Shown in pieces: positions 11,775 through 45,453 of a stretch of 45,453 nucleotides of DNA; position 1 is the first letter of the stretch, and each line of letters opens with the position of its first letter. The notes beneath the pieces are model-generated. The model was not told the DNA's origin. It searched no databases and saw only the letters and a program-made list of their open reading frames with translations. The position numbers and the translations under genes are program-made. This DNA is from an uncultured Eubacteriales bacterium. GTDB taxonomy: Bacteria > Bacillota_I > Bacilli_A > RF39 > UBA660. The stretch is from contig ONSL01000003.1 in NCBI GenBank assembly GCA_900320505.1, forward strand, positions 1-45,453, in the 5' to 3' direction.

Positions 11775-11851
11775 TGGTAGCGCCGGTGAGATTCGAACTT
11801 ACGACCTATCGGGTATGAACCGATTGCTCTAGCCAACTGAGCTACAGCGCC
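11775..11851 (-). tRNA. tRNA-Met (CAT), elongator type
   Basis: GGCGCTGTAGCTCAGTTGGCTAGAGCAATCGGTTCATACCCGATAGGTCGTAAGTTCGAATCTCACCGGCGCTACCA; cloverleaf with encoded CCA; resembles Bacillus elongator tRNA-Met and lacks the initiator GGG/CCC anticodon stem. Confidence 0.93.
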
Positions 11852-42039: not shown

Positions 42040-43854
42040 ATGGACCAGGATGTTTTATATATATTTAAATATAATGCTACTGATACAAATGGGAAAAAAG
42101 AAAATAGTTATTTTTTAGCATCTTCTAAGGATGATTGTGAACTATTTCTTGATGTTTTAGGATATAAAAATATTGAAGTAATGCCACTTGGTTCAGATGA
42201 AGCAAAACCCGATTTAAATAAAGCAGTCGATGAAGGAGAACTTGACGATAACTTTACAATTTTATCTGATGATTTAAAGGATAATAAAAGTTTATTTGAT
42301 AGTGTTGTTGATGTTGCTAAAAATGCTAGTTCAAATAAAAAAATCTTTCAGAGACTTGCATATTTTATATATAAAGGTGATACCTTAACTGTAAGTATGC
42401 AAAAACTTGGTAATGTTTTTCCTAAAGAGATTATTGATGAAGTAAGTATGGGAGAACTTGGCGGAAATATTTCTAGTCATCTTGCTAATTTAATTAGAAA
42501 GTATGGAGCAACTAAAGGCAAAAGTAAGAAAAAGAAGAAAAAAGGAGGACTTTTCTCTTTTAGCAAAAAAGAAGAAAAGAAAGAGTCTATTGCTGGTATT
42601 GATCTTCATGATGATTCTGAAAAGATTGCAGCAGATTATAAGGCTAAGATGTATCCATTTAAGTTTACTGCAGTTGATGAAAATGGAAAGAAGAAGACTG
42701 GATATTTTGATGCTGAAAGTATAGATGATTGTGCTAAATTTTTAGAGCATTCAGGTTATACAAATATACATGTTGAACCTAAGAAAAGCTACGATGTTCA
42801 AATAATTCTTGATAATAAGATTAATTTAAATAATATATCTTTTGATTTAACACAATTATCAACTTATTTGAAAGCTGGTATTCCACTTGTTGAGGCAGTT
42901 GACATACTTTCAAAACAAACTAAAAACGTTGTTAGTAGAACTGCATATAGCAGGCTTGTTTATGATCTTTTAAAGGGTGATAGTTTAAGTACTGCAATGC
43001 TTCATCAAGGAAATGTATTTCCTAAGCTTTTAATAAATATGATAAAGTCTGCTGAAATGACTGGTGATCTTTCGTCAGTACTTGATGATATGGCAGAGTA
43101 TTATGAAGATGTTGCTCAAACAAAGAAGTCAATGAAAAGTGCAATGACATATCCACTTTTTGTATTAGTACTTGCAATTGGTGTTCTTGTATTTATGCTT
43201 GTAAAACTTGTTCCACAGTTTGTTGTTTTGTATCAGTCTAATGGGGCAGATTTACCTGCAATTACTCAGTTTGTTGTTAATCAAAGTAATTTCTTAGTTC
43301 ATAACTGGATGTATATAGTTGGTGTTATTGCTTTAATTATAATAGTTTTTGTTGCTTGTTATAAAAATATGAAAGATTTTAGGAAAGGAGTACAGACTAC
43401 AGCAATGCATCTTCCTGGACTTGGTAATTTAATAATTTATAATGAGGTATATAATTTTACTAAAACTTTTGCGTCACTTTTGAATCATGGTGTTTTTATA
43501 ACAGATAGTATGCAAATACTTTCAAATATTACAACTAATGAGGTTTATAAAGAATTGATTAATAAGACAATGGTTAACCTTGCAAAAGGTGAAAAGATAT
43601 CTGATTCATTTAAAAATGAATGGGCATTTCCAACAGTTGCTTATCATATGCTTGTAACTGGTGAATCAACAGGACAACTTGGCTTAATGATGGAAAAGGT
43701 TTCACAACATTATAAGGAAATGTATAAGTCAATGGTAGAACAATTTAAGAGTATGATAGAGCCTGTTATGATTGTTTTAGTTGCTGGTATAGTAGGTGTT
43801 ATTTTACTTTCAATTGTTACACCAATGTTTGATATCTATAATCAAATTAATTAG
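42040..43854 (+). CDS. pilC: type IV pilus/T2SS F-family platform protein (PilC-like) with duplicated N-terminal module
   Basis: AGIPL, AE.TG.L, AMTYP, GE.TG.L and IEP motifs; extra ~200-aa degenerate copy at the N-terminus. Confidence 0.88.
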   Translation: MDQDVLYIFKYNATDTNGKKENSYFLASSKDDCELFLDVLGYKNIEVMPLGSDEAKPDLNKAVDEGELDDNFTILSDDLKDNKSLFDSVVDVAKNASSNKKIFQRLAYFIYKGDTLTVSMQKLGNVFPKEIIDEVSMGELGGNISSHLANLIRKYGATKGKSKKKKKKGGLFSFSKKEEKKESIAGIDLHDDSEKIAADYKAKMYPFKFTAVDENGKKKTGYFDAESIDDCAKFLEHSGYTNIHVEPKKSYDVQIILDNKINLNNISFDLTQLSTYLKAGIPLVEAVDILSKQTKNVVSRTAYSRLVYDLLKGDSLSTAMLHQGNVFPKLLINMIKSAEMTGDLSSVLDDMAEYYEDVAQTKKSMKSAMTYPLFVLVLAIGVLVFMLVKLVPQFVVLYQSNGADLPAITQFVVNQSNFLVHNWMYIVGVIALIIIVFVACYKNMKDFRKGVQTTAMHLPGLGNLIIYNEVYNFTKTFASLLNHGVFITDSMQILSNITTNEVYKELINKTMVNLAKGEKISDSFKNEWAFPTVAYHMLVTGESTGQLGLMMEKVSQHYKEMYKSMVEQFKSMIEPVMIVLVAGIVGVILLSIVTPMFDIYNQIN

Positions 43855-43870
43855 AAAGGAAGAGAAAATT

Positions 43871-44647
43871 ATGGATATATTATACATGGTTTTCTTTTTT
43901 ATTTTAGGAAGTATTATGGGCTCTTTTTATGCAGTAGTTGGTTTAAGACTTCCTAAGAAAGAAAACTTTATTAATTCTAGGTCACACTGTGATACTTGCA
44001 AACGTGAACTTGCTTTTTATGATATGATACCAATTCTTTCATATATTATATATAGAGGAAGATGTAGGTATTGCAAAGCTAAAATACCACCAATACTTTT
44101 TCTTTCAGAGATATCAACAGGACTTCTTTTCATGGTTTCTTATTATAGCTTTGGATTTTCAATAGATCTTTTAGTAGCTCTTGGTATTGTATCCCTGCTT
44201 ATTATAGTAATTGTTAGTGATGTATCATATTTTATAATACCTGATGAAGTTCTTATATTTTTTACAATATATTTTATAGTTTTTGATTTTATAAAATTAG
44301 GATTTTCTGGGACTTGCCATAGAATATTAGGTGCTATATTTTTGTTTTTACTTATGTATGCAATATCTCTTATTGGAAAAGCAATATTTAAAAAGGAAGC
44401 ACTTGGTGGGGGAGATGTTAAACTTTTATTTTTGTTTGGCCTGGTATTAGAACCAGTACTTGGGGTTTTTTCAATATTTCTTGGAAGCTTAATAGCTCTT
44501 CCAGTTGCTATTATAATTCTCTTAACAAATAAAGAGCATATTGTTCCTTTTGGACCATTTCTTTTGATAGCTTTTTTAATAATTTATTTTAGTAAGATAA
44601 GTGTTAGTGACTTTATAAATTTTTTAAGGTTTACTAGTATGAAATAA
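43871..44647 (+). CDS. prepilin peptidase (ComC/PilD, peptidase A24)
   Basis: RS.CD.C, GRCRYC, SD, GGGD.KL and PFGPF motifs. Confidence 0.93.
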   Translation: MDILYMVFFFILGSIMGSFYAVVGLRLPKKENFINSRSHCDTCKRELAFYDMIPILSYIIYRGRCRYCKAKIPPILFLSEISTGLLFMVSYYSFGFSIDLLVALGIVSLLIIVIVSDVSYFIIPDEVLIFFTIYFIVFDFIKLGFSGTCHRILGAIFLFLLMYAISLIGKAIFKKEALGGGDVKLLFLFGLVLEPVLGVFSIFLGSLIALPVAIIILLTNKEHIVPFGPFLLIAFLIIYFSKISVSDFINFLRFTSMK

Positions 44648-44723
44648 TTTTTTATTAATTCGTTGATATATAAGGATTTTAAAATTTTTAATAAAAAAAT
44701 TAAATTTTTTTAAAAAAATAATG

Positions 44724-44753
44724 TTGACTTTTTCTGAAAAAGGAGTATAGTAT
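44724..44753 (+). promoter_or_regulatory. strong sigma-A promoter with AT-rich UP region
   Basis: TTGACT 44724-44729; TATAGT/TAGTAT at 44746-44753; A/T tracts upstream. Confidence 0.65.
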
Positions 44754-44757
44754 TAAT

Positions 44758-45206
44758 TAAGTAAATGATGTTTATATCTTTGATACATTTGTTATCATAG
44801 ATATAATAATATCTTATCTAATTCATTTACTTATATGATTTGTGAAGAAGGTAAACTTCAAAGTAGAAAGTCGTTAGTAATTACCTAGTTGGGTTTTGAG
44901 TTTAGTCTTTAGTTTTCTTTAGATTTTACTTTTAATCTTTATCTAGAACGACTGGTAAACCGGTATATAGTATTTATATATTATGTACTGAGTGGGATAG
45001 GCCTCCTGCTTGTTATCATTCTTTATTACGTATCTAGTATACAAGATATGTAAGAGCCTGATAATCGAAAGATTATTGTTCTACTAAAAAGAATGCAAGT
45101 TCATGATTTATTAATTTGAGAAAGTTACTCTGATAAGAAGTTTATATATTATTTATATATGAGCTAAACTAGAAAAGGTTAAATCTATTGGTTTAATCTT
45201 TTTTTT
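44758..45206 (+). ncRNA. large structured non-coding RNA of unassigned family
   Basis: No ORF in the track; bounded by promoter and terminator; about ten complementary helices including long-range ones (see findings). Confidence 0.6.
45173..45206 (+). terminator. intrinsic terminator
   Basis: AAAAGGTTAAA/TTTAATCTTTT stem followed by T-run. Confidence 0.7.
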
Positions 45207-45301
45207 ATATAATAGGAAAGTCATGAAAAAATTTTAAATATTCCTTTTAATATCAACAATTTGCCCGTATAATAAGATTAGTTATAAAGGTGGTGGTTCG
45301 C

Positions 45302-45453
45302 TTGAAAATATATAAAGCTTATAAGTTTAGAATGTATCCTGATAAGGATACAGGGATTAAACTTAATTCATTTATGGGGACAAGTAGATTTATATATAAC
45401 CACTACTTATATTTAAAAGATAAATATTATAATGAGTTAAATATTAATTATAA
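45302..45453 (+). mobile_element. tnpB: 5' fragment of IS200/IS605-family TnpB (truncated by window end)
   Basis: TTG start after AAAGGTGGTGG; YKAYKFRMYP...KLNSFMGTSRFIYNHYL matches the OrfB N-terminal HTH. Confidence 0.85.

Follow-up and report, generated by a model that had tools for sequence, protein, structure and literature searches.

A candidate new class of large structured RNA, with two predicted pseudoknots and switching loop palindromes, in uncultured gut Bacilli

Introduction

To our knowledge, few large (>400 nt) bacterial RNAs of unclear function are known, and each of those studied has given unexpected biology, i.e. ribozymes, guide RNAs or RNA-only cages. OLE RNA is about 610 nt long, and GOLLD RNA is about 800 nt long and often phage-borne. 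A further RNA of this kind is reported here. Its gene lies at positions 44758-45206 (+ strand) of contig ONSL01000003.1 (C86; 45,453 nt, analyzed as a whole and termed the window), which belongs to a metagenome-assembled genome (MAG; assembly GCA_900320505.1, here G000) of an uncultured Eubacteriales bacterium; the MAG comprises 1.2 Mb in 88 contigs and is 81.6% complete.

In Kretsch et al. (PMC12286853), ROOL RNA is described as forming RNA-only nanocages that are held partly by kissing loops, and a switch of the OLE loop L9.3 from GGCC to GAUC or AGCU is given as covariation evidence for a symmetric intermolecular kissing loop, which was seen by cryo-EM. The argument, as set out in PMC12286853, is that adjacent letters of one loop cannot pair within the chain, so that a palindrome which switches and stays a palindrome points to a contact between two molecules. 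The RNA reported here is best read as a new class of large ornate RNA, akin in kind to OLE, ROOL and GOLLD, and two of its hairpin loops carry palindromes that switch among homologs.

The RNA gene

The gene occupies an open reading frame (ORF)-free stretch, according to the ORF list of the window, between a prepilin peptidase gene (43868-44647; Pfam A24_N_bact and Peptidase_A24) and the contig end. A sigma-70-type promoter is found at 44724-44751 (+ strand; -35 TTGACT, 16-nt spacer, -10 TATAGT; 10 of 12 consensus letters) with an A/T-rich stretch upstream. The RNA of about 449 nt (44758-45206, + strand) is predicted to start about 7 nt past the -10 box and to extend to the end of the T run of an intrinsic terminator (45173-45206, + strand), which comprises an A/U-rich hairpin of 15 bp with eight T in a row behind it and is seen both in the minimum-free-energy (MFE) fold and in the RNAalifold prediction. 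The interval 45173-45206 is absent from the list of the consensus terminator scan because the stem has fewer than three G-C pairs.

A first-pass annotation, made by a model from the letters of the window alone, had claimed a near-consensus promoter, this terminator and the lack of ORFs, and all three were borne out. No + strand ORF of 30 or more amino acids lies inside 44758-45206, and in the 12 members of the family (see below) the longest frame with start and stop codon, counted on the RNA strand, is 19-58 codons long and not conserved. A -35 box TTGAC(T/A) with a -10 box 16-17 nt further on was read by eye upstream of all 12 members, and a hairpin with a T run forms the 3' end of each.

The + strand of 44758-45206 folds at -119 kcal/mol, compared to -84.3 +/- 4.9 for 100 dinucleotide shuffles (z -7.06; none of the 100 as good), whereas the reverse complement reaches z -0.95, with 16 of 100 shuffles as good. 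For the RNA of a second genome, G003, which represents the diverged type B, the fold z-score is -6.31 in sense and -3.80 in antisense orientation. Furthermore, G-U pairs (for example in six of the 12 members at one pair of helix P5) are compatible with the + strand only. Since a promoter-like site and a terminator coincide with a fold z-score of -7.06 vs -0.95 on the reverse complement, the observation is real and strand-specific, and the interval 44758-45206 almost certainly represents a real structured RNA gene.

Members and types of the family

A second copy in the same genome (G000, contig C81; 69% identity) as well as three copies in G002 and one in G007 were found by BLAST. A weak match of the first partial covariance model (R1) in G003 proved to be a longer, diverged form of the RNA, and this form as BLAST query led to copies in G008, G004 and G009. 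Two further models were used: R2, broader and built on 12 sequences, and R3, for the 3' segment of types A and C. An IUPAC pattern of the most conserved segment yielded 15 loci in a collection of one genome per GTDB species, of which eight score with the model, all from MAGs of uncultured Bacilli or uncultured Clostridiales; in the metagenome collection the same pattern yielded 18 loci, of which five score, three with the scores of known copies and two of them new. The pattern loci that do not score as members (7/15 on genome contigs, 13/18 on metagenome contigs and 3/3 on viral contigs) were rejected.

The homolog search that the first-pass annotation had proposed thus gave 12 distinct members of 408-639 nt. 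Ten belong to one genus of uncultured, Bacilli-like gut MAGs with small genomes, in which 7 of the 11 species genomes were found to contain the RNA, and two are from metagenome contigs. Six members in two paralog groups are termed type A, the two metagenome contigs type C, and four members with a much larger 5' domain type B. In the member from G009 (L030 728-968 and 1357-1444), the P12 region is enlarged by an insert of about 130 nt, and a tRNA gene (50.7 bits) comes after the RNA; this is the only one of the 12 copies with a tRNA neighbor.

Covariation

RNAalifold predicted 101 pairs for the six type A members, of which 33 stay paired through changes on both sides. For the 5' segment (12 sequences; P3, P5, P6 and P7 imposed), 97.7% of 262 cells are paired, compared to 84.7 +/- 1.5% when partners are shuffled (0/500 as high); both-side changes occur at 10 of 22 pairs, and sliding the partner by 1-3 columns lowers pairing to 28-43%. 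For the 3' segment, 80.3% of cells are paired vs 68.6% when shuffled (0/500), with both-side changes at 16 of 27 pairs, in an alignment that is model-fitted and therefore biased towards structure by construction; this count covers the eight type A and C members out of 12, because R3 did not match the 3' segment of type B (E up to 1).

The full-length MAFFT alignment places the type B strands of P1, PKa, P2 and P11 out of register, and the long-range helices were therefore searched in each sequence separately, as the best ungapped helix between homologous windows set by conserved anchors. As a cross-type control, the 5' window of one type was combined with the 3' window of another (88 combinations). 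By this search all 12 members have P1, PKa, P2, P4, P5, P11 and P10 where expected, in several spellings. Mean complementarity of self vs cross-type combinations is 6.92 vs 4.31 for P4, 7.21 vs 4.76 for P5, 7.42 vs 5.08 for P11, 7.96 vs 5.98 for PKa, 6.67 vs 5.11 for P2, and 9.04 vs 7.59 for P1. These values are from the final search with narrower windows; wide windows gave other pairings for P11 (5/12) and P4 (1/12). The spelling of P4 is AGTAGAA/TTCTACT in most members and AACAGGC/GCCTGTT in the four type B members, and the core word of PKa switches jointly on both strands (CTTATC/GATAAG; ATTATC/GATAAT in type B; CTTACC/GGTAAG in one metagenome member), with extensions that differ among members. 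The predicted helices and both predicted pseudoknots are thus supported by covariation.

Predicted secondary structure

The RNA is predicted to have about 14 helices, all given below for the + strand of the window. The helices listed in the first-pass annotation were all recovered, either by RNAalifold with six members or by the per-sequence search with 12, and its two crossing long-range pairings are kept by compensatory changes in every member. The first of these pairings is P4 (44862-44868/45079-45085), which forms in 12/12, and the second is P11 (45017-45024/45088-45095; 6-8 bp, 12/12, nine spellings); in the order 44862 < 45017 < 45085 < 45088 the two cross and give a predicted pseudoknot core. 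The core is closed by the long-range helix P2 (44835-44843/45096-45105; one bulge in this copy; 4-10 bp, 12/12, at least five spellings), which is also predicted by RNAalifold (pairs 89-98/364-374). P4, P11 and P2 have 3' strands that directly adjoin one another (45079-45105, 27 nt), so that one short strand would join three distant upstream segments.

The 5' end forms the P1 domain (44758-44833), i.e. a stem (44758-44768/44823-44833; 8-11 bp, 12/12, several spellings) around a variable apical part, with compensatory changes in the RNAalifold prediction (pairs 7-15/70-78). The length of this domain is about 45-80 nt for types A and C, compared to about 155-205 nt for type B. A strand inside it (44812-44818) is predicted to pair with the 3' region (45132-45138) as the second pseudoknot, PKa (7-11 bp, 12/12), which is absent from the first-pass annotation.

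Within the core, the P3 hairpin (44844-44859) was recovered at exactly 44844-47/44856-59, with an invariant 4-bp stem and a conserved A-rich loop of 7-8 nt; its structure is predicted from conservation, as the four pairs never vary (12/12). P5 (44869-75/44947-53) closes a three-way junction and has seven pairs, four with both-side changes, and 100% of cells paired. This junction contains a short hairpin or palindrome, P6 (44877-44884), as well as P7 (44885-44946), a variable hairpin whose base has seven pairs, five with both-side changes. The junction is followed by a conserved joining segment, J (44953-44961; TGGTAAACC in this copy), by the variable hairpin P8 (44962-44989), seen in the MFE fold and in RNAalifold (pairs 220-227/249-256) with compensatory changes, and by the hairpin P9 (44989-45012), whose loop (44998-45003) contains the self-complementary word GGCC. 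The loop of the hairpin P10 (45026-35/45044-53) holds the 6-nt palindrome GTATAC (45037-45042). The hairpin P12 (45060-66/45071-77) has a GAAA loop in this copy and six pairs, five with both-side changes in eight members; its length and loop vary among members. Further downstream are P13 (45118-45130), a 3-bp hairpin with a conserved A-rich loop, for which the near-invariant sequence gives weak helix support, and the variable hairpin P14 (45139-45170), after which comes a conserved CTAAACT-like word (45164-45170).

Sequence conservation is highest in parts that are predicted to be unpaired, namely the P3 loop, which is A-rich, the P13 loop, J, and a YAAAC-like word in J and in the 3' tail. This word occurs twice, in J (44956-44960) and just 5' of the terminator (45165-45169), and the pair tends to switch jointly by type (TAAAC in type A, CAAAC in most of type B); the twin words could represent two sites for one partner. 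In types A and C, unlike type B, the 5' strand of P9 (44989-44997) has a second complementary partner, the 3' strand of P4 (45079-45085), and this alternative pairing was chosen in 4/12 members by the wide-window helix search. Competition between P4 and P9 is thus conceivable and would permit a conformational switch.

Presence in RNA libraries

A public-run index returned 20 rows with at least half of the sampled words of the stretch, of which six are recorded as RNA; where a row gives its source, this is always a ruminant or gut metagenome. For four RNA libraries, contigs were compared with 43800-45453. Mismatch-free contigs cover 44770-44869 and 44874-45187 (X9 and X11), 44769-44900 and 44871-45165 (X19), and 44787-45120 (X20); the metatranscriptome check suggested by the first-pass annotation thereby gave a combined cover of 44769-45187 at 100% identity from rumen RNA libraries of three studies. 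Further contigs in X19 and X20 run into the letters of the C81 paralog, and contigs in X9/X11 match the copy of the G007 type. X9 and X11 belong to different studies and carry different library descriptions, and their contigs are identical in length, depth and position; they probably represent one data set deposited twice and were counted as one. In the four libraries no contig lies on 43800-44751 or 45200-45453, and these uncovered parts carry no evidence. The contigs are consistent with transcription of several family members.

Self-complementary loops and proposed mechanism

The loop of P10 (L10) contains GTATAC in 8/8 type A and C members and GCTAGC in 4/4 of type B, and the word lies 1-2 nt ahead of the 3' stem strand throughout; the two words differ in four of six letters, and the palindrome is kept. 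The loop of P9 (L9) contains GGCC in 10 of 12 members and AGCT in the other two, which are the second paralogs of G000 and G002, whose other copies have GGCC. P6 is a palindrome in types A and C (loops AATT, AGCT and CATG) and a plain 5-bp hairpin with a 3-nt loop in type B. L10 and L9 thus show the feature on which, in PMC12286853, the case for OLE was built, i.e. loop words that covary and yet stay self-complementary.

A mechanism can be proposed on this basis. Transcription from the strong promoter of the gene itself, ended by the intrinsic terminator, would yield a stand-alone RNA that acts in trans. The strand 45079-45105 would pair in turn with the three distant upstream segments to give P4, P11 and P2, with P4 crossing P11 as pseudoknotted core, and PKa would connect the 3' tail with an internal loop of the P1 domain at the 5' end. 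In this fold the conserved A-rich loops would be exposed, together with L9 (GGCC/AGCT) and L10 (GTATAC/GCTAGC), and the latter two may form symmetric kissing contacts between copies of the RNA; the RNA would then work as a dimer or higher homo-oligomer, i.e. as a scaffold or particle, and not as a regulator of a neighboring gene. The self-association through L9 and L10, argued by analogy to OLE, is tentative, and taken alone we would sooner expect it to fail than to hold. The overall reading, i.e. a new class of large trans-acting structured RNA that may self-associate via kissing loops, is the one we cautiously favor. As a bolder extension, which we regard as speculative and rather unlikely, the RNA might be the fourth family in nature, besides OLE, ROOL and GOLLD, to form quaternary assemblies from RNA alone; it would be a double-pseudoknotted RNA of 410-640 nt, self-assembling by symmetric kissing loops, in which the loop codes of paralogs (GGCC vs AGCT in L9) would specify two orthogonal particles per minimal-genome cell.

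Several points weigh against the reading that we favor. The 12 sequences are related and come from about four clades of one genus, so there are few independent compensatory events and the shuffle tests overstate significance. Palindromes of 6 nt that contain G or C are not rare, with 4-12 per member vs about 3.5-4.3 in shuffles; the case for kissing loops therefore rests on their position and on one or two concerted switches per loop. With its 5-7 nt, L9 leaves little room for a loop-loop helix of 4 bp, and the P6 loops of type B, unlike those of types A and C, are not self-complementary. The contigs from RNA libraries are silent on the ends, strand and level of the RNA, and DNA carry-over into such libraries is possible. 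Lastly, in four species of the genus (G001, G005, G006 and G010; 90-94% complete) the RNA was not found with R1, R2 or BLAST with a query of either type; in two of them, G010 and G006, the genes for a SpoU methylase and a thioredoxin-like protein, which border the RNA in other genomes, are adjacent with only a short terminator region between. As this syntenic site is empty in two species, the RNA is dispensable or replaceable.

The main rival, which we consider unlikely though well worth weighing, is that the RNA is a monomeric component of a ribonucleoprotein (RNP), or a ribozyme, with its partner or substrate encoded elsewhere, and that the palindromic loops serve protein or tertiary contacts. 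The compact core with its double pseudoknot would suit such a role, as would the fact that the best conserved parts are single-stranded A-rich loops and joints (P3 loop, J, P13 loop and the YAAAC-like word); OLE RNA, the closest analog, works with proteins. Against this rival, none of the protein genes is linked to the RNA throughout, neighboring genes vary from copy to copy, the SpoU/thioredoxin pair is found together in species that lack the RNA as well, and no self-cleavage or ligand motif was recognized by Rfam.

Distribution and genomic neighborhood

Outside the genus, searches with R2 used samples and strict filters. Nothing credible was found in 150 other genera of the family, in 150 genomes of the class or in 150 of the phylum, and the sole match in 150 genomes of the order was G003, of the same genus; phage, plasmid and viral collections gave no match to the family under strict filters. 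Weak R2 matches in the family sample (G091 and G128) and in the phylum sample (G420), as well as weak matches at L075 and L079, were read by eye as coding sequence without the other motifs of the family, and a BLAST match in G001 is located in coding sequence. At 19 loci of other genera the region 3' of the SpoU methylase gene contains an ORF-free gap of up to 349 nt and no comparable element; three such gaps were folded and showed no excess structure, except one that reads as a tRNA.

The gene neighborhood differs widely among copies. In the window, the neighbors are the prepilin peptidase gene and an IS605 TnpB gene; other copies are located next to genes for glycyl-tRNA synthetase, aspartyl-tRNA synthetase, an SMC protein and a DHH-DRTGG-CBS protein, an AAA ATPase and a repeat protein, an FHA-domain protein, a collagen-repeat protein, or a tRNA and a HAD hydrolase. 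A tail-to-tail arrangement with a gene for a SpoU-family methylase is seen for five copies (G007, both metagenome contigs, G003 and G008), and in G007 and both metagenome contigs a gene for a thioredoxin-like lipoprotein lies upstream. On C81 of G000 (L002, about 1250-1420, - strand), the region between the paralogous RNA and the glycyl-tRNA synthetase gene (Pfam tRNA-synt_2b and HGTP_anticodon) contains, by eye, an apparent separate promoter and a T-box-like leader.

An IS200/IS605-family element, represented by its left end and the first 54 codons of its TnpB (Pfam HTH_OrfB_IS605, E 5.3e-12), is located at 45197-45453; it starts at the T run of the terminator and runs off the contig. The same end occurs on contigs C10, C57, C75, C27 and C52 without the RNA and often at contig ends, and the element therefore probably breaks the assembly. 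Copies of one paralog group are found at non-orthologous places in sister species, which implies that the RNA gene has been duplicated or moved repeatedly.

These two observations, together with the patchy distribution within the genus, would favor an RNA that belongs to a mobile element, either as guide or accessory RNA of the abutting IS605/TnpB element or as a selfish dispersed repeat. Such an origin is improbable. TnpB is a neighbor in only 1/12 copies, the element's end is present on at least five other contigs without the RNA, and the RNA lies upstream of the left end, whereas guide (omega) RNAs of TnpB derive from the 3' end of the element (3' end of tnpB, right end). A comparison by eye of filled and empty sites showed no terminal repeats, target duplications or element boundaries, and the phage, plasmid and viral collections were blank. 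The IS605-family element is a chance neighbor of the RNA.

Catalogued families and remaining alternatives

The window was searched with cmscan against the 4,227 families of Rfam 15, which include OLE, ROOL, GOLLD, raiA, HEARO, group I and II introns, RNase P, tmRNA, SRP and 6S RNA. The only match in the window was a tRNA gene (11778-11851, - strand; 63.9 bits), which is unrelated to the RNA gene. A permissive search (E up to 10) of 854 bases at the locus returned only two chance matches below the cut-off, snoR442 (18.9 bits vs 50) and manA-II (17.5 vs 100), and six homologous loci including type B, searched with E up to 1, gave nothing on the RNA. Genes for RNase P RNA (C34, 7026-7329; 255.7 bits), 6S RNA (C52), tmRNA (C64) and SRP RNA (C37) are found elsewhere in the genome above their cut-offs, in line with the first-pass annotation, which had seen none of these RNAs and no group I/II intron at the locus and had considered the RNA possibly new. 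Word searches of the literature found no description of the RNA, which is weak evidence, as such searches cannot find an unnamed sequence. We consider it very probable that the RNA is outside the known families.

The converse, i.e. a strongly diverged member of OLE, ROOL, GOLLD, raiA or another known large family that the Rfam models missed, is highly improbable. It would account for the rumen habitat shared with ROOL, the similar size class, the pseudoknots, and loop words like those of OLE L9.3 as given in PMC12286853. Weighed against this are the blank results for this copy at E up to 10 in 4,227 families and for the six homologous loci. The ROOL model (RF03087, 574 positions) likewise gave no match in the whole genome at E up to 10, a result of little weight alone, since the control for this model was positive in 0/14 genomes.

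A role as cis-acting leader or riboswitch for the downstream gene is scarcely credible. The terminator hairpin at the end recalls an attenuator, and two copies lie upstream of aminoacyl-tRNA synthetase genes; however, the terminator has a constitutive form, no alternative antiterminator was noted, and the copy at the glycyl-tRNA synthetase gene is followed, by eye, by what appear to be a separate promoter and leader. The downstream genes are unrelated among copies and convergent in at least five of 12 (SpoU methylase; three of type A/C and two of type B), and because the RNA has its own terminator in addition, it is not a leader. A chance origin of the pairing in intergenic, A/T-rich DNA, where a G+C content of about 26-30% at the RNA region makes hairpins easy, is refuted by the strand-asymmetric fold (z -7.06) and by 12 homologs that keep the helices through compensatory changes, and its probability is next to nil.

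Significance and comparison with known large RNAs

Two or three copies of a costly RNA gene in genome-reduced, uncultured gut Bacilli argue for a real cellular role. The restriction to one genus limits the general reach of the finding; it suggests, at the same time, that many lineage-specific large RNAs are probably still unseen in MAGs. With two well-supported predicted pseudoknots, the family is compact enough for cryo-EM and chemical probing, and the predicted self-association is directly testable, with natural specificity variants at hand.

Among known RNAs, bacterial RNase P RNA of type B is similar in length and in having a long-range pseudoknot helix in the core; the RNase P model is silent on the new RNA, whose P1 is a local hairpin and not a pairing of the 5' and 3' ends. 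The size class of OLE, ROOL and GOLLD, to which the first-pass annotation had assigned the RNA, stands insofar as the RNA is large and ornate, with the qualification that 408-639 nt is the small end of this class and that the family is so far confined to one genus. GOLLD shares the large, ornate character and, according to PMC12286853, has a covarying symmetric kissing loop; its Rfam model gives no match to the new RNA. ROOL shares the rumen origin, an ornate multi-helix fold with pseudoknot, and a patchy distribution; it differs in that RF03087 is silent at the locus, that no phage or plasmid copies of the new RNA were found in the collections searched, and that a tRNA is a neighbor in only one of 12 copies.

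The closest analog is OLE RNA (RF01071). The OLE model gives no match to the new RNA, which is shorter (408-639 nt) and whose hosts are gut commensal MAGs and not extremophiles as for OLE; the order of helices is not comparable by eye. The 25 flanking proteins that were scanned belong to ordinary families only, in a scan that included no name search for OLE-associated proteins. Both RNAs are large, stand-alone and highly structured, are served by a promoter of their own and occur in Gram-positive-type bacteria, and in both, with OLE as described in PMC12286853, a self-complementary tetranucleotide in a hairpin loop switches between GGCC and AGCU among members, which in OLE marks the symmetric kissing loop of the dimer.

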